Source of the DNA: Truepera sp.
GTDB taxonomy: Bacteria; Deinococcota; Deinococci; Deinococcales; Trueperaceae
NCBI GenBank assembly: GCA_048594695.1
Contig: JBMDWS010000371.1
Span: 1-52,302 of the forward strand
Length of the DNA stretch: 52,302 nt
Reading direction: 5' to 3'
Positions 3,295-48,692 of the stretch are shown here, in pieces. Every line of letters begins with the position of its first letter. The first letter of the stretch is position 1. A program made the translations under genes and the position numbers. The notes beneath the pieces are model-generated. The model did not search any database. It was not told the origin of the DNA and saw nothing but the letters and a program-made list of their open reading frames with translations.

Positions 3295-3816
3295 TTATTC
3301 CTCGAGGTACGAATTGAGCGCCGTTCTGACCGAATAGTTCGACCATTCCTTGAGAAAGTTGGACGAACTCCAGGCCTTATCGAGGCCGACGCCGGAAATG
3401 ACTTCGATGCCGAGCGCCTCGCACACTTCCCACTCGGGGATGTTGGTGTGGTCGACGCGGTCGCCGCCCTTGGTAAACACGTGCGGTTTGATCTGCCGGA
3501 GCGCCTCGCGCACTGTCGAGTCGTTTTCGATTTCAAAGGGAATGACGTAATCGACTTCGCGGATGCAGGAAACGACCGCCGAGCGGGTGGCGAGGTCCAT
3601 GAAGGGCTTACCCTTTTTGTTCGTCAGAAACTGGTCACCGTTGACCACCACGACGAGCGTGTCGCCATACTGCTTGGATTCGATAAGGCAGCTCGCGTGA
3701 CCGGGGTGCAAGGGATCGAAGCCGCCCGAGGTGCAGACGATTTTGCCGAGCGAGTCGCGCAGCGCGTCGAACTCGTCGAAACTGACGATCTTGGCGTACT
3801 TAAGAGATGCTGACAT
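3295..3816 (-). CDS. Cytidylyl/adenylyltransferase (CTP_transf_like, RfaE domain II/TagD-like)
   Basis: SGGFDPLHPGH (HxGH motif), LVVVVNGD, KPHVFTKGGDR, C-terminal SSS. Confidence 0.88.
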   Translation of the reverse strand: MSASLKYAKIVSFDEFDALRDSLGKIVCTSGGFDPLHPGHASCLIESKQYGDTLVVVVNGDQFLTNKKGKPFMDLATRSAVVSCIREVDYVIPFEIENDSTVREALRQIKPHVFTKGGDRVDHTNIPEWEVCEALGIEVISGVGLDKAWSSSNFLKEWSNYSVRTALNSYLEE

Positions 3817-8510: not shown

Positions 8511-11500
8511 TTAGCGAGCACCCCGGCGCGCCAGCACAGCGATCACGGTCTGGACCAGGATGACGATGTCCCACCACAGGGACCAGTTGCGCACGTACTG
8601 CGCCTCCATCTCGAGCCGCTCCTCGAAGGTCACGTCGGCGCGCCCGGTCACCTGCCAGTACCCTGTCATACCCGGTTTGGCCTCGAGGATGACATCTTGC
8701 ATCCCGCGCATGTCCGGCAGCTCCTGCACCAGGTAAGGGCGTGGCCCGACCAAGCTCATTTCGCCCCGCACGACGTTCAGGAGCTGCGTGAGTTCGTCGA
8801 GGCTGTAGTTGCGGATAAAAGCTCCGGCCCGAGTGATACGGGGGTCGTGCTCGAGCTTGTGAAATCTCTCGTACTCCTCGCGGACTTTGGGGTCGTCGCG
8901 CATCATCTCCTGCAGGCGGGCGTCGGCGTCTTGGTACATCGAGCGGAACTTGAGGCACTTGAAGGGTTTGCCCTTCTGCCCGATGCGGGTACTCCAGTAA
9001 AAAGCCGAGCCGGGCGAGTCAAGCCGGACCCAGAGGGCCAGCGCGATGAGAATCGGCGAGATGAGTAGGCCCCCCAGAACGCTGCCGAGCAGATCCACGG
9101 CGCGTTTGACGCTCTGATTGATCCGCGAGTAGAGACCGAGGCGGACCTCGAGCGCCAGCATACCGTCGAGGTCGCTGGCATAGACGCCCTGTGAGGGCAG
9201 ATTGACGAGGTCCGGGATGAACTGCACCCGGCGAAAGATGCGCCCGCGTGTGTTGATGAGGCCACTTAGGAGCTGCGGCGTCGCCGTCGGGATGGCGACG
9301 ATGGCGTGCTGTACGCCGCGCCGGAGCGCGAAGAGGTCGGCGTCGCTCAGTTTGCCCCGTACCCGCAGGCCCTCGAGCGTCAGCGCCTGCTTGTCCGGGT
9401 CGTCGTCGAAAAACGCGATGGGGTGGAGCCCGTCGAGGGGGCGAGCGCTGAGCGCCCGGGCGATGCGCCGCCCCGCCTTGCCTGCACCCAAGATCACGAC
9501 CGCTCTGCCCCAGAGTCGCCAGTGGTTCAGGAGCCGCTTGATAAGGGCACGTCCCAGCGGGGCCAGCACCATACTAAAAATGATCGTCAGGATCAGAATC
9601 GAGCGCGGCACGACGAGTTCGCGGGTAAAGAGTACGGTGCCGACAGCCAGAATGAGCCCCGCGTAGGCCGAGGCGGCGACGTGCTTTTGTAACTCCTGTG
9701 CTTCGGTCAGGCCGTAGCCCGGGTAGAGCCCCTCGCGCCAAGCCATGGCGGGCCAGAGCAGCAGGGCGTAACGGGCCAGCTCGAGGGAATCGGCTCCGGT
9801 AAATATTGGCGACATCCCGAACCATTCGCCCACATACTTGCGGGTCCAAATGGCTAGGGTGAACGCGATAAGCGTCATCGTAAAGTCGGTGAACATGAGC
9901 GCCAGGCGCACGCCGAGCTGCCGCATGGCACTGTCGCGTTCACCCGTGCGGGCATAGCGGTAGACCGCCGCCCGCCAGCCCGCGACCGCTGCGAGCGGGT
10001 AGAGAAGTTGCCCGGAAAAAAGGGTCACGTCGAACAGATTGGCGGCTCCGAGCGCCGCGATCACGGCCAAGAAGGCCGCGTCGCCCTTACGCAGGGCGAC
10101 CTGGGTGAGCGCCGCCAGAAACAGCAAAAAGCCCATAAATCCGACGAGGCCACGCTCGAAAAGGATCTGCAAGGGTAGCGAGTGGGCGTGATTGGGTGCT
10201 TGCTGGTCGGGCCAGAGCTGCCGGAAGTAGTCGGCAAAAGGGACGCTCTGCCCCCAGACGGGTGAAGCTGTAAAGCCTTGCCAGGCTGTTTGCCACTGGG
10301 TCAGGCGGGCGCGTTGCAGGCTCAGACCACGGGCCGCGGGGGCCGGAGCGTAGCGGGTTGGGGAGAGGCCGTACTCGAGCTGCAAACCCGCGAACGCCGC
10401 TTCGGAGCCCGCCACCCCGCGCTGATCCGGTGCGAACCCGAGGGAGCCGTCTACCGTATCGACTTTGCCTTCGTAGACGAAAGTGACGTAGACCCGTTGC
10501 CAGAGGCCGCGTGTTTCGAGAACACCCGCGTCGAGAACGCGTCCGGGTCCGCTGGCAGCAGCCCGCCAGTCGTCGCCGATAAGGGCAGCCTCGAGGGTAA
10601 GCGCGTCGCCACCAGAACTGCTCTGCCACGACCCGCGAATGCCCGTCTCGAGTGTACTGTCCTCGCGCCAGAGCCAGAGGCTGAGGGTATAGGCCTCGCC
10701 TTTGGTGAGTGGGACGACCTGCTGGAGCCGCGCACCCGACCCAGGCTGAAGTTTGGTGACCAGATAGGTCGTGAGGGGCGGGTTCTCGAAAGACAGCGTG
10801 GTGTCTTTGACCCGGACGCCCACGGGATCCCACCAGCTGCCGTTCCCGACCTCGGTGCCCTGAAGCAGATTTTTGGATTGCGCCGTGACCGGCGCGACGT
10901 CGATCAGAAAACCCGAGTTGCCCCAGCCGAAAAGGGGTCCTAGCAGCGCCGCGCCAAGTAGCGTCGTGCCGAAGGCCAGGACCGTAATCAGCCGCCGCTG
11001 CGGCGCGCGCGTCGTCCCGACGAGGCTGAGAGCCAGCGCTACGATGATCCAGGCGATCGCAGCCTCGCGGCTTCCCGAAACGAGCACGCCGAGGGCGGCC
11101 AGCGTCAGGCTGAGCAGTTGCCAGCGCAACTTGGGCAACAAGATCGCGACGAGCGCCCCGAGCGTGAGAACCGTATGCCCGTAGAGACTGGTCTGGGGCA
11201 GCGACTCGAGCTCACCCGGTAACGCAGGAGACAGAGTGCCACCGAGCGCGTCATAAACACCCAGACCCACAAGAAGCGCGAGCCCGGTCAGGAGCCCGAC
11301 GCCGATCCAGGAGGACTCGAGGCTCTCCCTACCGATCTTGGACAGATGAAGGATGGCGAAAGCCCGGTAGATCAGCCAGGGAGCGACGATCTGTAGCGCC
11401 CCGAAGAGAAAGCCCTGAAGCCCGTGATGAACGCCAAAGGGCAGCGCTAGGAGGAGCGCCGCACCGAGCCAGAGTAGATCCGAACGCATGAGACGCCAAC

Positions 11501-11612
11501 GGCTGACAACGAGCATCAAGAGACCAATGAACGGGCTGTAGGCGGGTAAGAAGGCAAAGCCGAGACCCAAAATAAACGTCAGACCCTTGGTAAGGGGCGA
11601 CAAAACGGTCAT
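8511..11612 (-). CDS. Fusion: O-antigen ligase-like (Wzy_C) domain with a periplasmic CBM-like insert, joined to a WbaP/WcaJ-type polyprenyl-phosphate sugar-1-phosphate transferase
   Basis: Multi-TM N-half with SGSREA and HAHSLPLQILFERGLVG. C-half has a Rossmann-like ILGAGKAG and Bac_transf motifs KFRSM, SLDELTQLLNVVRGEMSLVGPRP, KPGMTGYWQV, YVRNWSLWWD. Confidence 0.88.
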   Translation of the reverse strand: MTVLSPLTKGLTFILGLGFAFLPAYSPFIGLLMLVVSRWRLMRSDLLWLGAALLLALPFGVHHGLQGFLFGALQIVAPWLIYRAFAILHLSKIGRESLESSWIGVGLLTGLALLVGLGVYDALGGTLSPALPGELESLPQTSLYGHTVLTLGALVAILLPKLRWQLLSLTLAALGVLVSGSREAAIAWIIVALALSLVGTTRAPQRRLITVLAFGTTLLGAALLGPLFGWGNSGFLIDVAPVTAQSKNLLQGTEVGNGSWWDPVGVRVKDTTLSFENPPLTTYLVTKLQPGSGARLQQVVPLTKGEAYTLSLWLWREDSTLETGIRGSWQSSSGGDALTLEAALIGDDWRAAASGPGRVLDAGVLETRGLWQRVYVTFVYEGKVDTVDGSLGFAPDQRGVAGSEAAFAGLQLEYGLSPTRYAPAPAARGLSLQRARLTQWQTAWQGFTASPVWGQSVPFADYFRQLWPDQQAPNHAHSLPLQILFERGLVGFMGFLLFLAALTQVALRKGDAAFLAVIAALGAANLFDVTLFSGQLLYPLAAVAGWRAAVYRYARTGERDSAMRQLGVRLALMFTDFTMTLIAFTLAIWTRKYVGEWFGMSPIFTGADSLELARYALLLWPAMAWREGLYPGYGLTEAQELQKHVAASAYAGLILAVGTVLFTRELVVPRSILILTIIFSMVLAPLGRALIKRLLNHWRLWGRAVVILGAGKAGRRIARALSARPLDGLHPIAFFDDDPDKQALTLEGLRVRGKLSDADLFALRRGVQHAIVAIPTATPQLLSGLINTRGRIFRRVQFIPDLVNLPSQGVYASDLDGMLALEVRLGLYSRINQSVKRAVDLLGSVLGGLLISPILIALALWVRLDSPGSAFYWSTRIGQKGKPFKCLKFRSMYQDADARLQEMMRDDPKVREEYERFHKLEHDPRITRAGAFIRNYSLDELTQLLNVVRGEMSLVGPRPYLVQELPDMRGMQDVILEAKPGMTGYWQVTGRADVTFEERLEMEAQYVRNWSLWWDIVILVQTVIAVLARRGAR

Positions 11613-39401: not shown

Positions 39402-39893
39402 TCATGGTTCTTGTAGTTCTAAAATATACGCGTCGCAACGAGATCGTGGCAGGTTGAAAACTTTCTCAAAATCACCATAAGCATCATAAAAATCGCTGAA
39501 CAGATCCTTGTTGAAATCTATGCGTGCATTTGAAACTTTGAGGCTGTTACGGTATTTTTCTACTCTGAAGCGAGTTAGCACTGAGAAATCGCCATTTGGA
39601 TTGAGGATATGAGCATGAATCCAATCGTTTCTTTCTGCGACGTCAAAAACCTTCTTTAGCGCAGCTAGTTTGGGCTTATTCTTTTCGGGGGAGTGCGCTA
39701 AAAGTTTTTCGAGTTTTTCCTTCTTGCGCCCCGCAGATTGTGGGTTCCATTCCAAGCAATTTGCTTTGGCTGGCCCATCAGAAAATTCGTATATCGCTAC
39801 TTCCAACATCAGCTCGAAATTTGACCAGAAGGCGATGAAACAACCGAATTCATACATAAATCGTTGCGTAGGATGAAGATGCTCTAGTGACAA
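39402..39893 (-). CDS. Low-GC hypothetical protein with a HEPN-like Rx4H motif
   Basis: AT-rich codons, GGAGA RBS before TTG, helical N-terminus with W..FE..LE, and ERNDWIHA. Confidence 0.65.
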   Translation of the reverse strand: MSLEHLHPTQRFMYEFGCFIAFWSNFELMLEVAIYEFSDGPAKANCLEWNPQSAGRKKEKLEKLLAHSPEKNKPKLAALKKVFDVAERNDWIHAHILNPNGDFSVLTRFRVEKYRNSLKVSNARIDFNKDLFSDFYDAYGDFEKVFNLPRSRCDAYILELQEP

Positions 39894-40651: not shown

Positions 40652-41176
40652 GTGGCCGCTTTCGACTACGATCTGGACTTCAAGACAACCGATTTTCGGG
40701 CGCACCCCGAGCTTTACCGGGTCGGCAAGGGCGAGCAGGGCGTGCTTCTGGTCGAGCCCTACAAGAGCGAAATCCTGCCCCACTGGCGCTTCAAAACGCC
40801 GGAGGTGGCAGAAGCGTCCTCCAAGAAAATCTACGCGATGTTCGAGGCGTACCTGGAAGTCGAGGATTTTCCGGGTGCGGACATGGCGCGCAAATTCTTG
40901 CAGATGGGTTGGACGCGCTCGCGGCGCTACGCCAACCACAAGGGTGGCAAAAAGTACGACGGTCCCGTGCCCGACGATAAAAAAGGGCAGAGTGGGGCAC
41001 ATGGGAGAGCCGTGCTACCTAGAGAGATCGACGAAGTCAAGGCTGCTTCAGCGGAGATCTTTTATGCCCGCTACCTTCGGGCTCGGGAGCACCCAGAGTA
41101 TAAAAGGCAGCGGGCGGAGCATATCGCGCGTTACGAAAAGGTGAATGAACACCGTGCCAAAGCCGAACGCCGCTAA
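40652..41176 (+). CDS. DUF4385 family protein
   Basis: YRVGKGEQGVLLVEPYKSEILPHWRFKTP, GADMARKFLQMGWTRSRRYANHKGGKKY. Confidence 0.88.
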   Translation: MAAFDYDLDFKTTDFRAHPELYRVGKGEQGVLLVEPYKSEILPHWRFKTPEVAEASSKKIYAMFEAYLEVEDFPGADMARKFLQMGWTRSRRYANHKGGKKYDGPVPDDKKGQSGAHGRAVLPREIDEVKAASAEIFYARYLRAREHPEYKRQRAEHIARYEKVNEHRAKAERR

Positions 41177-43035
41177 TCCACCCGGCGGATGCCCAGAGGC
41201 AGCTCCGACAAGACGTTTGGAACGATGGCAACGTAGAGATTGTTCGCGTTGACGTCTCGCGGCAAACGGAACTGAAAAGAGAGCTGGCTGTCTCTTGGAG
41301 AGACCGAGCTGACCGTTCGCAGGGTGCGCTGGCGACCGATTCCCTGGACTTCTATAAGCTGCACGCTCTGAATGTTGTACCCGAGACCGAACGGGCTAAT
41401 CGTACTGAAAAACTCGTCACGTTCGTCGTCCAGCAAGACGTCGACGGTTCTCAGGAGAGTGCTGCCGCCGATGCTGGCGCTTAGAACGAGGGGCGACTGG
41501 GCTGCCAGTTCATTAAATTCGAGCGGCTCGAGCCCGAGGCTATCAGCTGCGTCGCTGCCGAGCAGAAGCTCGACGAAGCTCTTGACCGCTGTGAAAGGGT
41601 CAACGCGGTAGTACTTACGCAGCTGATAGTCCGCCGGGTTGTTGTCCGCAATTTGCGTCGTGACCGACGCCAGATCGAAAGTCATCTCGTAGCCTTCGCG
41701 CACCTCGAAGAGATCGAGCTTCCCGAACGGAACCCGGACGCTCAGCAGCACGTCGGCGAAGACGCCAGCCTTAAGATCACGGATCGTCGTGGCGAGGGTG
41801 CCCAGGCTGCCAAGCGACACGTTTCCCTGCGCGGTCAGATTACCGGCGCGAGTCAGGTTGGTGCAGCCCGCCGGAGGGCGACAATCGAAACCCAGTCGGA
41901 CAGCGCCGCTGGTACGTGCCCGCGCCGAGAAGGTTCTCGAGCCCGCCCCGTAGCTACCACCCAGCGTCAGGCCTGGAGTCAACGTGGCCTCAAACGAAAA
42001 GCCCAACGCGCTGAAGGTCTGGGTCACACCATTACGAATCTTGCACGCGACGTCGAGCCCGTTGAAGTTTGTGTTGATGCGGTGGTTACCCGAGCTTACG
42101 GTGAGCTGGGGCGAAGCCGTGAAGAGGAAGCTGGCGCGACCTGCTGTGACGAAGGGAACTGGCAGATCAAAGACAAAGCGGAAGGTCGGACTCCCGGTAT
42201 TAAGCGTAAAGCTCGGCGTGCCCAGATCGAAAGTGGTGGGAGGGGTGTCGCCGTTACAGCGGAAGGGACCGATGTCAAACGCCTGGGGCAGCACGCTGTT
42301 TCTGGTTTTGGGAGTGAAGGTGAAGGTGCCGTCCCGCGCACGCTGAACATTATAGGCACGCTTGACGTCTTCGGAAACGGTCACTTCTTCAGAGACGAGC
42401 TCGAGCGTCTCATATACCTTAAGTGCGCTAAAAATTGTAGCCATTGGTACAATCTCGAGGGTAACCTCGGTGCCTGTTGCGACGCTCCGGCTCGAGACGA
42501 TCTCGCCCATGACCGGAAACCCTGTAGACGTCTTGCTGAACCACAGCTTGCCTACAGTCGGGGAAACATCTTGCAGGATAACGGTGTACGTCTTGCCAAC
42601 ATCGAAAGGACTGACCCCTACGGGGAATACGGGTTCGGCAACGATTTTGCTGCTCTCGATGCGAACCACCGTTTCAGCGAGGCTGCCGACCGAGGCCAGG
42701 ATGGGCGCTGAAACTGCGTCACCAGAGCGAGCTCGGAGCAGAGCGCTGCCGACGGCATGCCCTTTAGCGTTTCCAGCCTGATCAACGCTTACGACAGCGG
42801 GATTACTGCTTTCCCAGACTATCGAGCCCTCGACAGGATTCCCTTCTGCATCGAGAGTCTGGGCGGTGAGGGTCTGCAGTGCGCCGATATTCTCGAGGAG
42901 CAGCGAGCCCTCTGGAACGACAACGCGCTCGGCACTTGCGCTAGAGGGCGGTTCAGTCGGAGGGCCGGACTGGCAGGCGCTGAGTGCGAGGGTGGCAAAT
43001 AGACTTGACCAGCAGAGGTAAACTTTAAAGGTCAC
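41173..43035 (-). CDS. Large lipoprotein with an N-terminal Ig-like (Big_2) domain and a beta-rich body
   Basis: LALSA-C lipobox, IVWESSNPAVVSVDQAG..G...GSA Ig-like motif, Cys pairs in the mature region. AGGAGA RBS before GTG. Confidence 0.82.
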   Translation of the reverse strand: MTFKVYLCWSSLFATLALSACQSGPPTEPPSSASAERVVVPEGSLLLENIGALQTLTAQTLDAEGNPVEGSIVWESSNPAVVSVDQAGNAKGHAVGSALLRARSGDAVSAPILASVGSLAETVVRIESSKIVAEPVFPVGVSPFDVGKTYTVILQDVSPTVGKLWFSKTSTGFPVMGEIVSSRSVATGTEVTLEIVPMATIFSALKVYETLELVSEEVTVSEDVKRAYNVQRARDGTFTFTPKTRNSVLPQAFDIGPFRCNGDTPPTTFDLGTPSFTLNTGSPTFRFVFDLPVPFVTAGRASFLFTASPQLTVSSGNHRINTNFNGLDVACKIRNGVTQTFSALGFSFEATLTPGLTLGGSYGAGSRTFSARARTSGAVRLGFDCRPPAGCTNLTRAGNLTAQGNVSLGSLGTLATTIRDLKAGVFADVLLSVRVPFGKLDLFEVREGYEMTFDLASVTTQIADNNPADYQLRKYYRVDPFTAVKSFVELLLGSDAADSLGLEPLEFNELAAQSPLVLSASIGGSTLLRTVDVLLDDERDEFFSTISPFGLGYNIQSVQLIEVQGIGRQRTLRTVSSVSPRDSQLSFQFRLPRDVNANNLYVAIVPNVLSELPLGIRRVD

Positions 43036-43135
43036 CGGGTATCTCCTTTTCTGCCTGGCTAGGCGCTAGACGAAGGTTGCGATGGGTAGGTTTGCGGATG
43101 ACGTTTAGACACGAGCTTCACCCCTTTCTGATCCC

Positions 43136-43300
43136 TTAGCGCAGCCCCTGATGCTCGAGCTGCTTGACGACGTAGCGCCGCAAGCTCGCCCACGAGGCGA
43201 ACGTCTGTTGCTGACCGGTTTTCAAATCGTGGAGAGAAAGACGCACAGTGCCGTCTTTACGCTGAGCGCGAAGGATAAAAGCGGCGCTGCCCCGGGTCAT
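43136..43300 (-). CDS. Small protein (54 aa) absent from the ORF track
   Basis: MTRGSAAFILRAQRKDGTVRLSLHDLKTGQQQTFASWASLRRYVVKQLEHQGLR*. ATG lies 6 nt after CACAGT and just downstream of heptamer repeats; same orientation as both neighbours. Confidence 0.7.
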   Translation of the reverse strand: MTRGSAAFILRAQRKDGTVRLSLHDLKTGQQQTFASWASLRRYVVKQLEHQGLR

Positions 43301-43320
43301 GGCGCTACTGTGGCAGAGGG

Positions 43321-43351
43321 GCGTTACGTGAGCGTTTCACCGGAGCGTTGC
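43321..43351 (-). promoter_or_regulatory. Candidate SARP-type binding site: heptamer direct repeats
   Basis: Plus strand GCGTTAC (43321), GCGTTTC (43332), GCGTTGC (43345). The first two are exactly 11 bp apart and end 8 bp upstream of a -10-like CACAGT on the minus strand. Confidence 0.6.
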
Positions 43352-43397
43352 ATGAACTGGGTCACATGGGATACGTCGGTTCGTACCCGGATACACG

Positions 43398-46300
43398 CTA
43401 GAAGTCGGGCAAGCTGGACAAGAGTGCGTCCCCGAGTTGCTCTACGTTCAGGGTGCAGCTGTGCGCCAGGTCTGAGAGGCCGGCCTCGAGTTCGGTATGA
43501 ATGCTTAGCGGGACGTCACTTACGAGACTCGACATCGTTTTCATGATCGCCTGCATGACGGTTCCGCGTAGCCCTGGATCTTCGGCGATAAAAACGGCGT
43601 GGGCGATTTTTCGGCGATGCTGCTGTGCAAAATTCAGGAGGCCGAGCTGCTGTGGCACGGAGGGCGAAGGGCAGTCTCGCCCCACGAGAATCAGGCAAGC
43701 AAAGCTTCTGTCCAGCTCGTTGGCGAGCTGCTGCACGCGTGTGACGCCTTCGTCACGTACCGCTTTTAACCAAAGTTGGACCAAGACTGGAATGGGTGCC
43801 TCAGTTAAAACTGTAGCGACCAGATACTCGGGGGTATCGGGGTACGTAAGGATGCGCTGAAACTTTTCGGTCAGTGTGGTTTGGTCTGGGCTTGGCACAT
43901 TGACCTCGGGTGGGAGGGCGGCGCCAAAGGCCGCTGGTCCTGTAGGTGCGGGCAAATATGATCGTGAGGGTGGAAATGTCCGAGGTTTAGGGAGTACCTG
44001 CTGAAGTTCGTTCCAGACGTATCCCGGGACGGCTTTGCGGCTGAGCTTGTCGGCGAAAGCCATGACCTGTTCGCGCTGCTGGGGATTGCCGTAGCGCAGC
44101 GCCGCGATGGCTACCCTGGCGCGGGCACGGTCGATGACCGTGTCTTCTAGGGCATAGAGACTTTGCCTCAGCGTAAGTTCACCTGCACCGAGTTCGCCGC
44201 TAGCGAAATAAACTTCTGTTAGGTAGCCCAGCACGACGGCGCGGTTGCTCGGGTCGTGAGTATGAGCCGCGAGCGACTCGAGGAGTTGTCGGGCGTTTTC
44301 GGGTTGTTCCAGTTCGAGATAGGCCTTAGCCAGGTTGATTTTGAGGATCTCGCTGGCATCGTAGTGGTCGATCGGCAGAGCTTTGACCGCCAGCTCGAGT
44401 GCCGCTTCAGGTTGATCCAGCTCAAGTTGACAGTAGAGATAGTTGGCTACGGACCACACCCACCAGTAGCGGTCGTGGTGCTGCTCGGCAAGCCGCAACG
44501 CGCGGAGGTAGAGGGGAGCCGCCTCGGTGTAGGCCCCGTTGCCGCAGTAGAGCCAGGCCAGATTGGAATGAAGCTGAATCACGAGACGCGGCTCGAGGGT
44601 GGCGAGGTCGCTTCCGAGGAGCGTCTCGAGCCGCGCCACCACACGTTCCTGCTCGCCTGAAAGAGCGCAGACATTGGCGTAGGCGAGGAGCGCACTCACG
44701 TAACTTTCAGGAAATACTTTGGTTACTTCCGAGGTCGAGGTGGAGAGTTCCAGCGCTGCCTCGGCACTTTTCAGGGCCGTACCGAGCTGACCCAGGCGAA
44801 GCGCCACATAGGTCTTCAGGATCAGCACTTTACGTTTCAAGGTGGGGTCTCGGGTGCCTAGCAGGGATTCGCAAATCTTCGCAGCTTCGTTGTAGCGTCT
44901 GAGGCTCAGGAGGGCGTCGGCTCTCAGGTAAGTAAGCCTGTCGAGCATGTTTCGGTTCGGCTCGAGAGCGAGCGCGCGCTCCAAGATGGCGAGGGCTTCG
45001 TGAGTGAGCCCTTGCGCAAGAAAAGTTGTTGCGGCCTCCTCGAAAGCGTCGGCTGCGTGCTCGCTAAGGTTGGCGTTCAACCAGTGCTCGGCGACGCTTA
45101 GAGGTTCCGCCGTGCCGGTTAGGGCCTCGGCCAACCGGGCGTGCAGGTAGTGGCGGCGGGTAGCTGAGAGGGAGAGGTAGACGCTTTGCCGCAGCACATC
45201 GTGGCTGAAGTGGTCTTCAAGGGTTAGACCCGCGGTTTCGGCCTCCTCGAGTGCACCGAGCACCGCGACTTCGGAGAGCCCGGTCACGCGAGCAAGCAGT
45301 CCGGGAGAGAAAACACCCTGCACGACGCTAGCAGCTTGAAGCACCCGCCTCACCTCTTCGGGCAGCGCGGCCAGCCGGCTCAAGATGAGTTCGGTAATGC
45401 GGCTCGGCACCTCGAGTTCGGCATAGTCCCGGGTTACCTCGTCGAGGTGGGTGTGCCAGTTGCTTCCCTCGGCGCGGAGCAGGGTGCTCTCAAACAGGCT
45501 TTTGAGAGTTTCGAGAGCAAATAGCGGGTTGCCTTGCGAGCGCTGATAGAGCCAGCGGCTAAAGATTTCCGGTCCTTCCGCTGCACCGATGAGTTGCCCC
45601 ACAAGCTGCCGGGTTTCTGCTTCGCTGAGCGGGCCCAGCTGAATTTCGTCGAGACAGCCCTGTGATCGCAGGGCGGCGCGCGCCGCGTACAGGGCGGGAG
45701 TTTGTTCATGGAGGCGGTAGGCTCCGAAACAGCGTGACCGTCTTCGCAACACCAGGTAGATGAAAAGCTCGAGCGTCGCATTGTCGGCCCACTGCAAGTC
45801 GTCGAACACTAGGGGTGCCGCAAAGCCCTCACAGATGCGGGCTAGCGCGTCGATTAGACGCGCTTTGGCAAGCCCCGGCTCGAGTGGGCCGGGCGTGAGT
45901 TCGGGTGCGGTTTCTGGAATCAGTCGGGCGAGGTCTTCGCGGTAGTGCTCCAGCTCGGGCAGGCGCTTCAGGTTTGCCCGGATAAGGTCCACGACAGGGT
46001 AATAGGGTACGTGGGCAAGACCTTCACGGCAGCGACTCCAGAAGGCTCCGGGCAGACTTTCCTCGAGTAAGCGGGTTTTGCCTACACCAGGTTCGCCCGC
46101 AAGCAGCAAGGCGGCAGGTTGTGGCTCGCTCGCCTCGAGAAGTCGCGCCGTTTCCAGACCCCTGCCGACGAGTTTCGGTGGGCGCAGCACTGTTAGGGGG
46201 ACGGTGTTCCGGGCTGGTGCGGGAAGAGCCGTGGTTCCCTGCAGGGGTTCTGCCTGTTGTATGACGCGAAAAAGCCGCTGGGTGCGCTCGAGAGGTTCGA

Positions 46301-46943
46301 GGTCGAGCTCATCTTCTAGCCGTTCAAGAAAGAGCTGGTAGCGCTTAAGCGCCTCGTCGCGCTGTCCGCTCAGATAGGCCTGCTCTAGATACCGGTTCAG
46401 GATGTCTTCGGCAAGCGGATCTCGTTCGAGCAACTGCTGGAGCAGTCCGGCGGCTTGCGCGTGCTCCTTATCCCTATCTAGCTCGAGAACGCGTTGCAAG
46501 GTTGCCTTTCGCCAAGCACTGAGCAAAATCTCCCGTTCGTTACCGCACCACGCCTCGAAGCCGGGGACATTCCCCAGAGGAAACCCGTCGAGCAGCGGAC
46601 GTTGGTGAAGGTCTAGAACGGCTCCCCAGTCTTTTTTTGCAAGCGCCTCGCGCAGTAACCTCACGTCGCTGGCAACGCGCCAGCGCAGGCGCAGCGGTTC
46701 GCTGTCGAAGTCTTCAACCCACGCCGGTGCTTTGGCGCGGCTAATAAGAACGCGCAGACTGCGCCGGGCTCGCTGTTCGTCTTCGTCAGGCCAGAACACT
46801 CCCAAAAGCTCGTCGCGGCTGACCCAGTCGCGGGCGCAGGCGAGGTAGACGAGCAGGAAAAAGGGTTTATGGGGGGGAAGCTCCATGTGCCGCGCGCCCC
46901 ACTCGAGGTGAGGCGTGCCCAGCAGGCGCACGAGGAGCGACAT
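43398..46943 (-). CDS. SARP/BTAD transcriptional activator + STAND ATPase (AAA_16) + TPR + extra C-terminal domain
   Basis: VRLLG.P, LLVYLA....VSRDEL...FWPD, FEAW, DPLAE, LELEP-type BTAD end, LVGR, GEPGVGKTRL, VFDDLQWAD, GNPLF, FSHD, TPR-like helices. Leaderless ATG 5 nt after TACACT. Confidence 0.9.
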   Translation of the reverse strand: MSLLVRLLGTPHLEWGARHMELPPHKPFFLLVYLACARDWVSRDELLGVFWPDEDEQRARRSLRVLISRAKAPAWVEDFDSEPLRLRWRVASDVRLLREALAKKDWGAVLDLHQRPLLDGFPLGNVPGFEAWCGNEREILLSAWRKATLQRVLELDRDKEHAQAAGLLQQLLERDPLAEDILNRYLEQAYLSGQRDEALKRYQLFLERLEDELDLEPLERTQRLFRVIQQAEPLQGTTALPAPARNTVPLTVLRPPKLVGRGLETARLLEASEPQPAALLLAGEPGVGKTRLLEESLPGAFWSRCREGLAHVPYYPVVDLIRANLKRLPELEHYREDLARLIPETAPELTPGPLEPGLAKARLIDALARICEGFAAPLVFDDLQWADNATLELFIYLVLRRRSRCFGAYRLHEQTPALYAARAALRSQGCLDEIQLGPLSEAETRQLVGQLIGAAEGPEIFSRWLYQRSQGNPLFALETLKSLFESTLLRAEGSNWHTHLDEVTRDYAELEVPSRITELILSRLAALPEEVRRVLQAASVVQGVFSPGLLARVTGLSEVAVLGALEEAETAGLTLEDHFSHDVLRQSVYLSLSATRRHYLHARLAEALTGTAEPLSVAEHWLNANLSEHAADAFEEAATTFLAQGLTHEALAILERALALEPNRNMLDRLTYLRADALLSLRRYNEAAKICESLLGTRDPTLKRKVLILKTYVALRLGQLGTALKSAEAALELSTSTSEVTKVFPESYVSALLAYANVCALSGEQERVVARLETLLGSDLATLEPRLVIQLHSNLAWLYCGNGAYTEAAPLYLRALRLAEQHHDRYWWVWSVANYLYCQLELDQPEAALELAVKALPIDHYDASEILKINLAKAYLELEQPENARQLLESLAAHTHDPSNRAVVLGYLTEVYFASGELGAGELTLRQSLYALEDTVIDRARARVAIAALRYGNPQQREQVMAFADKLSRKAVPGYVWNELQQVLPKPRTFPPSRSYLPAPTGPAAFGAALPPEVNVPSPDQTTLTEKFQRILTYPDTPEYLVATVLTEAPIPVLVQLWLKAVRDEGVTRVQQLANELDRSFACLILVGRDCPSPSVPQQLGLLNFAQQHRRKIAHAVFIAEDPGLRGTVMQAIMKTMSSLVSDVPLSIHTELEAGLSDLAHSCTLNVEQLGDALLSSLPDF

Positions 46944-47052
46944 AGCTGAGTGTACTCGGCCTGACCAGGAGGCCTTATCTCAAGAGGTTACCCGTGAGGA
47001 AGTAAACGCGCCCCCAGCGCGCGCTGACCATTCTCGCCAGTCGCCCGCCTTG

Positions 47053-48099: not shown

Positions 48100-48588
48100 C
48101 TAGGCCAGGCCCAGCCACCGCAGAAAACGCGAGGTCGGGCTTGGTGGGGTTAGCTCGAGGCAGCGTTCACCTGTGGCTGCCGTGAGTTCGTTGCGGTAGA
48201 GCGCGATGAGGGTCTCGTTCAGGCGCTCGCCCCGGCTAAAGTGCCGGATAAAGATGGGGTTGAGCGTCGCCAGCAGGGGCTCGAGCGTGCCCACTTCGGG
48301 TAGTTCGCCGTGTCGCTCGAGGTGGTCTTGCAGGTATTCCCACTGCACCAGGTAATAGAGCCGTTCGGCGTCGCGGAGGCGCAGACCCAGCGCTTGCACT
48401 TCGGGGAGGCTGAGGGCCCGGAGGCGGCTCAGGCTGTAGCGAGTCGCGCTGAAGGCGCGCTCGAGGGCGCGGGTGTCGACGCCGAGGGCCGACGCGAGGC
48501 GCGCGCGTCCCCGGTTGTCCCTCTCGCTGGGGCGCACTTTTGTCCGCCTTAGGGGTGCCCATCCCAGGGGTTGTCTGCTGTAAGCCAT
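48100..48588 (-). CDS. Hypothetical protein
   Basis: GGGAGG RBS before ATG 48588, host-like codons, helical; weak HhH-like segment LSLPEVQALGL...AERL. Confidence 0.62.
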   Translation of the reverse strand: MAYSRQPLGWAPLRRTKVRPSERDNRGRARLASALGVDTRALERAFSATRYSLSRLRALSLPEVQALGLRLRDAERLYYLVQWEYLQDHLERHGELPEVGTLEPLLATLNPIFIRHFSRGERLNETLIALYRNELTAATGERCLELTPPSPTSRFLRWLGLA

Positions 48589-48692
48589 ACGCGTCACCTC
48601 CCGTTCGCTCTTTTCCGTTATAGGGCGAAGTTCGGTCAGTAAAGCGTGTCAAACTTAACTTCAGCTTAAGAGTGTGGCAACAAAGTGAGATT

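Follow-up and report, generated by a model that had tools for sequence, protein, structure and literature searches.

A conserved microprotein gene behind a SARP-type promoter box beside AfsR-like regulators of Deinococcota and Chloroflexota, and its possible role as an AfsS-like cofactor

The window analysed here is a stretch of 52,302 nucleotides, positions 1 to 52,302 (forward strand) of contig JBMDWS010000371.1 from the Truepera sp. assembly GCA_048594695.1 (Deinococcota). On its minus strand, the gene of a large regulator of SARP type (Streptomyces antibiotic regulatory protein), predicted to combine a winged helix-turn-helix (wHTH), a BTAD domain, a STAND ATPase and tetratricopeptide repeats (TPR), is followed by a heptamer repeat, a 54-aa open reading frame (ORF) and a lipoprotein gene. 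The 54-aa ORF encodes a real, conserved protein under purifying selection, and regulator, repeat and small protein recur in two phyla. With slightly more than even confidence, we favour a model in which these parts form a feedback unit resembling AfsR and AfsS, where the regulator would drive the promoter behind the repeat and the small protein would tune the regulator. SARP and STAND activators have been studied almost only in the antibiotic control of Streptomyces; for most of their relatives, neither site nor target nor partner is known.

The layout given in the first-pass annotation, with heptamers at an 11-bp period, 8 nt, CACAGT, 6 nt, the ATG of the 54-aa ORF and the lipoprotein gene about 100 bp further on, was found in place. 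The features of the unit are, in the direction of transcription:

46949..46954, minus strand: TACACT, a -10-like hexamer 5 nt before the regulator ATG, read from the sequence as a putative promoter element
43398..46943, minus strand: BTAD-STAND-TPR regulator, 1181 aa, from sequence and Pfam
43401..43880, minus strand: C-terminal extension of the regulator, 160 aa, behind a proline-rich linker
43345..43351, minus strand: third heptamer GCAACGC, 13 bp further up, out of phase
43332..43338, minus strand: GAAACGC, upstream heptamer of the SARP-type box, 59 nt past the regulator stop
43321..43327, minus strand: GTAACGC, downstream heptamer, 4 nt after GAAACGC and 8 nt before the -10
43307..43312, minus strand: CACAGT, a -10-like hexamer 6 nt before the microprotein ATG
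43136..43300, minus strand: 54-aa microprotein ORF, ATG at 43300, ending in GLR
43043..43047, minus strand: AGGAG, Shine-Dalgarno sequence of the lipoprotein gene, 7 nt before its GTG, read from the sequence
41173..43035, minus strand: predicted lipoprotein, 620 aa, GTG at 43035, 100 nt past the small ORF

The transcript of the small ORF likely starts leaderless at the ATG at 43300, and TACACT is likely the leaderless promoter of the regulator. A -10 motif directly before the ATG is a common leaderless layout of Deinococcota, according to the available text of two reports (PMC12340547, PMC4007540). A sigma-70 consensus scan returned neither a promoter nor a terminator inside the unit, and an NCBIfam scan gave nothing over the cut-off. 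A contig of public run X1, possibly the source sample, covers 43094–43525 with one difference.

The small protein belongs to a family that was nearly invisible to single-sequence searches (one match among 5.8 billion, six among representatives), and profiles were needed. A single query (E ≤ 0.1) matched 13 of 60 relatives. A 22-row profile matched 81 of the 128 genomes of the family and an 80-row profile 104 of the 299 genomes of the phylum (61/101, 8/108, 8/12, 0/15 and 26/62 per family), both tallies including the window's own genome (G000) and G128. With a broadened profile, it was detected in 18 of 61 sampled Chloroflexota genomes, at least seven of which had supplied rows to that profile. 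Sampling 81 genomes from the phylum of a Burkholderiales metagenome-assembled genome (G329) and 81 from that of Actinokineospora (G326) gave no match to the small-protein profile. Single genomes held up to 11 matches, so that many paralogous units coexist. Nonsynonymous divergence was lower than synonymous divergence (pN<pS) in all 23 non-overlapping pairs of 60–97% identity; what the first-pass annotation had called a hidden protein is thus a conserved one. The AlphaFold2 model has a beta-beta-beta-alpha fold with a predicted local distance difference test score (pLDDT) of 88. No Pfam, NCBIfam or PDB family was common to the members, and Pfam returned nothing for the window copy. Mimicry of a part of the regulator was considered and rejected (hhalign probability 0.2).

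The own genome holds a second member of Chloroflexota type (C71:7824-8073), divergent from a 1272-codon BTAD frame and with its own 11-bp repeat and -10-like hexamer. In Actinokineospora (L175:3540-3737), a BTAD gene is preceded by a box and a leaderless ORF of 65 aa whose first strand is similar; the profile match of this ORF was not significant, and it was not accepted as a family member.

The repeat in front of the small gene is conserved as well. Within 110 nt upstream of the homologues, a repeat of at least six of seven positions at lag 11 was present in 94 of 116 regions, compared with 5–20 at lags 7–10 and 12–24, a mean of 9 in shuffled sequences and 3 of 112 coding controls. According to the available text on SARP promoters, the repeats as a rule follow an 11-bp period, and the 3' one lies 8 bp from the -10 (PMC10936776). 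The window box and the conserved boxes fit this geometry, as the first-pass annotation had proposed. The whole pattern (repeat, 8–9 nt, xAxxxT, 5–9 nt, in-frame start) could be placed in 100 of 116 loci, at lax thresholds and without a matched control. In these 100 sites, the spacer from repeat to -10 was 8 nt in 55 and 9 nt in 42, the gap between hexamer and start was 6 nt in 78, and the first -10 position was C, i.e. a weaker -10, in 25. In Chloroflexota, the lag-11 box was found in 12 of 30 loci, with none at lags 9, 10, 12, 13 and 14.

The motif (G/T)AACGC-N4-GTAACGC suggested at first proved too narrow: the repeat is conserved, with a broader consensus, G-N-(A/G)-A-C-G-(C/G). The third copy, GCAACGC, is present 13 bp further up as described; it was conserved in 0 of 100 loci and is probably incidental. 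The fixed box pattern matched the own genome once at spacer 4 and 1, 1 and 3 times at spacers 3, 5 and 6. Because these counts are similar, the single box of the window is not beyond chance by itself, and it is conservation that makes it significant. With a matrix trained on other genomes, the window site ranked first in its own genome (24.8 bits), and a control lag reached 24.0 bits. By eye, flanks of BTAD genes on C336, C416 and C111 of this genome, none with a small gene, carry 11-bp repeats of GTCA/GTAA type, 9 nt and a -10-like hexamer, downstream or divergent.

The small gene is tightly linked to the regulator. We examined the best 120 of 167 small-protein matches, from 68 genomes, with the own-genome row and three G128 rows excluded and a few loci overlapping. 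A regulator homologue lay within the fetched stretch, within about 4 kb, in 101 of them: 79 had it directly upstream on the same strand (≤320 bp), 9 in divergent orientation, 7 downstream and 6 further upstream. Another six loci were on contigs too short to show a regulator. In Chloroflexota, 22 of 30 loci (30 of the 43 matches with loci given) had a regulator match within 1.5 kb. Conversely, a box was found near 25 of 60 BTAD genes, compared with 3–9 at control lags; these are the stronger of 99 matches in nine genomes, with G025 and weaker rows excluded, and for five of them the script's frame was shorter than the tool's, so that their flanks are possibly misplaced. In three contigs (G006:C142, G127:C80, G032:C250), tandem arrays have a small gene between successive BTAD-STAND genes. 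A biosynthetic cluster was not seen among the genes checked here, which bears out the claim that the unit lies outside antibiotic clusters.

In the regulator of the window, BTAD (aa 108–228; PF03704, 44.9 bits against a cut-off of 22.1), AAA_16 (aa 257–402, 65 bits) and TPR_19, TPR_7 and TPR_14 exceeded the Pfam cut-offs. The regulator class first assigned was upheld in these parts, with a weak wHTH below the cut-off (Trans_reg_C, E = 0.039). W51, P52, R64 and R69 are conserved where the wHTH is expected, a placement made without a tool alignment to the AfsR DNA-binding domain, and AfsR was the best PDB sequence match to the N-terminal part (E = 1.9e-6). The STAND motifs, Walker A GEPGVGKT, DDLQWAD and F-x-HD (F-S-H-D, aa 579–582), are invariant or nearly so. 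F579, H581 and D582, which are invariant across 31 regulators, match the F/Y-HD latch of large SARP STAND regulators, as given in the available text of a preprint (bioRxiv 10.64898/2026.09.02.748808). NB-ARC was absent among the 20 Pfam families matching at E ≤ 1. By predicted architecture, the regulator is AfsR-like; it is not an AfsR orthologue, because its ATPase scores as AAA_16 and not as NB-ARC. In the Atlas, the homologue P0029 belonged to unnamed clusters only, under 0.9 (Pseudomonadota, Chloroflexota), which we treat as leads only.

The closest regulators align only up to about aa 985, with the box directly after their end. The 160-aa tail beyond has a lower GC content (0.57 versus 0.62), no Pfam match, no homologue of similar length and a poor structure model (pLDDT 43); a search of 200 other genomes gave three marginal matches only (E about 0.008). 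By eye it resembles STAS/SpoIIAA, and no match to SpoIIAA was obtained on testing. Parts of the tail and the junction region are also present in public-run contigs, which makes an artefact of assembly less likely. At window position 46196, within the regulator gene, one contig of run X2 lacks one base; this is either an assembly error or a strain allele with a frameshift.

The variant of the box and the subtype of the small protein go with the tree of the neighbouring regulator. On a FastTree phylogeny of 61 wHTH-BTAD domains, box position 2 changed 10 and 12 times, compared with at least 22 in 300 shuffles. Small-protein distance correlated with regulator distance (r 0.70, permutation maximum 0.12), and the small protein tracked the regulator over its own-genome paralogue in 31 of 35 cases. 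Inspection by eye placed GT-type boxes and small proteins ending in GLR mostly beside GExGxGK regulators, and the remaining boxes and tails beside those with GxGGxGK. In L074, the nearest regulator, the asymmetric box is the same and the lipoprotein that follows is unrelated.

The gene in third place varies from locus to locus and usually encodes an exported protein. Of 111 downstream ORFs, 60 carried a lipobox or signal peptide, compared with 363 of 1797 own-genome control ORFs, as counted by a crude script, some of whose picks were wrong-frame ORFs. Among 36 cargoes picked by eye, a scan gave PKD, beta-helix, WD40, LRR, DUF11, cupredoxin, M28 peptidase, Band 7, hydrolase, GGDEF, LysE or nothing. 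The Ig-domain lipoprotein of the first description was borne out as far as a lipobox (LALSA-C21, read from the sequence rather than with a dedicated predictor) and a single Big_2 match (aa 50–106); the remainder is unassigned. Only one distant homologue occurred among the loci (L070, 26% over 506 aa), and the lipoprotein was rejected as a fixed partner. Of the three-part co-occurrence proposed earlier, regulator, repeat and small protein recur in two phyla, while the cargo is exchangeable. In 24 of 114 loci, another box and its -10 stand behind the small ORF, compared with 2–8 at other lags. No second box was seen by eye in the window.

We hypothesize the following mechanism. Opening of the HD-latched STAND switch would free two SARP domains onto the two heptamers as a tandem pair. 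The bound regulator would recruit RNA polymerase to the weak leaderless promoter, giving a leaderless transcript with the microprotein first that would run on into the exchangeable exported-protein gene. The microprotein would then bind back to the regulator and tune it. By analogy with AfsR and other SARPs, binding to the box and recruitment of the polymerase at the weak promoter are very probable, and it is probable that the HD latch mediates ADP/ATP switching and that the TPR region is the sensor. Binding of the small protein to the regulator, which was modelled, has about an even chance. The most likely contact surface would be the wHTH-BTAD part, because the small protein also accompanies five regulators of 359–425 aa without a Walker A motif. 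As a guess, an enhancing effect is mildly favoured over an inhibiting one because of the AfsS precedent.

Complex prediction with regulator aa 1–940 and the small protein gave weak support, with a score of 0.35 (best control 0.00), contact agreement between runs of at least 88% and a partner pLDDT of 75 or more. In the calibration, 116 of 157 solved pairs and 2 of 215 mismatched ones reached the mark; scores of 0.60 or below accounted for only 18 of these solved pairs and for both of these mismatches.

Several observations weigh against this model. The tool's calibration implies that a complex which passes weakly is wrong more often than right, unless it was likely beforehand. No regulator was detected in 13 of the 120 loci with at least 1.5 kb of upstream sequence. 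A small gene was nearby in only 17 of the 60 BTAD genes and 2 of 10 in the own genome; since most BTAD genes lack it, the small protein is not an obligatory subunit. A box with a regulator gene nearby may also serve a long or unrelated ORF directly (L188, L192, L190, L217). Physical linkage alone predicts matching trees, and kin are not independent; the co-variation therefore reflects long co-inheritance and is not proof of binding. Finally, AfsS-like repeats were not seen in the small-protein alignments.

A different role for the small protein, with regulator and box as in the model, would be to act on DNA, RNA or RNA polymerase at these promoters and not on the regulator. The small beta-beta-beta-alpha fold, the nearly invariant R11 (71/80) and the net charge of +7 in the window copy are in line with this, as are double-stranded RNA-binding domain and AP2 chains among the weak fold matches (Z about 4). 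The median net charge of the family is only +2, however, with a range from -7 to +11, and the best fold match (Z 5.0) did not stand out, none being specific; a remote relation is still compatible with these searches. The small-protein subtype also follows the regulator clade, and we consider this explanation unlikely.

The small ORF could mainly be a translational leader, its leaderless initiation handing ribosomes to the cargo by coupling. It is indeed the first, leaderless ORF in Deinococcota, and in 22 of 111 loci its stop is overlapped, by 1 or 4 nt, by the downstream ORF that was picked. Conservation at the level of residues in two phyla, together with pN<pS, exceeds the needs of a leader, and the window cargo begins 100 nt further on and has a Shine-Dalgarno sequence of its own. 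Many Chloroflexota copies, judged by eye, themselves have a leader and a GGAG-like site, and the second box after the ORF, found in a subset of loci, also speaks against a leader, which we regard as quite improbable.

Still less probable is that a global response regulator of OmpR/PhoB type, and not the neighbouring protein, binds the repeat. An exact-pattern scan of GTDB gave 86 matches; a BTAD/STAND gene lay within 3.5 kb of only 19 of the 80 that were listed, 11 of the 80 had a small gene, and some matches precede 26-aa membrane peptides. Box variants differ inside one genome and follow the adjacent regulator's tree, however, and boxes are enriched near BTAD genes. In addition, the matrix scan of the own genome, with 13 sites scoring at least 18 compared with 5–8 at other lags, gave no clear broad regulon. 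At about position 3500 of four Solirubrobacteraceae loci (L199, L200, L212, L225), a repeat and -10 of similar kind stand before hydrophobic peptides of 26 aa that resemble KdpF; this suggests an OmpR-type box of the same geometry. At about 3500 of L190 and L217, the same box precedes leaderless Thr/Pro-rich peptides of 52 and 37 aa, possibly precursor peptides, with a BTAD-STAND gene downstream on the opposite strand. That the small protein is an accessory, i.e. a chaperone or inhibitor, of the exported cargo fits their likely common operon and the excess of signal peptides and lipoboxes, and is the least probable alternative, given that the cargoes are mutually unrelated and the small protein follows the regulator.

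The feedback model has its closest precedent in AfsR-afsS of Streptomyces. In the available text on that system, afsS lies directly downstream of afsR and is activated by AfsR, and AfsS binds AfsR and raises its DNA affinity (PMC10832544). AfsS has two to five internal peptide repeats, which its binding to AfsR requires. Both systems share the order of BTAD, behind a wHTH that is putative in the window, STAND ATPase with HD latch and TPR, a small gene directly downstream of the SARP gene and behind its box, and two repeats at 11 bp located 8(–9) bp before a weak -10, which is CACTGT in afsS and CACAGT in the window (PMC10936776, in its available text). In contrast to AfsR-afsS, the small protein of the window is predicted to be folded, the small gene of Deinococcota is leaderless with a variable exported-protein gene behind it, the ATPase is AAA_16, many paralogous units occur per genome, and no biosynthetic cluster was seen among the genes checked. 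The ectopic AfsR-like regulators of Actinomycetota (bioRxiv 10.64898/2026.09.02.748808) are likewise large SARPs outside biosynthetic clusters with the F/Y-HD motif; that survey covers Actinomycetota only, and its available text does not name an adjacent microprotein or box. The leaderless promoters of Deinococcota similarly have a TANNNT-like hexamer 6–7 nt before the start codon, as far as the available reports describe them (PMC12340547, PMC4007540), whereas here the hexamer is joined to an upstream activator box and often has C at position 1.

Elsewhere in the window, the lipoprotein stop overlaps that of a convergent DUF4385 gene (40652–41176, plus strand) by 4 nt (41173–41176), and no terminator was found there. 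Two ORFs of 163 and 165 aa (39402–39893 and 48100–48597, both minus strand) had no Pfam match at E ≤ 1. A polysaccharide gene cluster includes the gene of a 1033-aa protein in which an O-antigen ligase (Wzy_C) region is fused to CoA_binding_3 and a bacterial sugar transferase (8511–11612, minus strand).

The regulator class and the promoter geometry are already known. The microprotein family is new to Pfam and NCBIfam, and neither the family, its cross-phylum coupling to SARP boxes nor the exchangeable exported cargo was found in titles and abstract openings of open-licence papers. For many such regulators in two other phyla, the unit offers predictions of operator, start site and target genes, together with a protein that is a candidate partner. 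Parts of it are held in named Truepera and Meiothermus records, and it is therefore directly testable. With a little less than even confidence, we propose that the 54-aa protein founds a hitherto undescribed family of SARP-dedicated microprotein cofactors in Deinococcota and Chloroflexota, each switched on by its own activator, which resembles nucleotide-binding leucine-rich repeat (NLR) proteins, and binding back to it. This would be a feedback switch over exchangeable surface proteins and a second, independently evolved solution to the role of AfsS. If the microprotein does modulate the regulator, small-protein feedback would be a recurring trait of bacterial NLR-like transcription switches.

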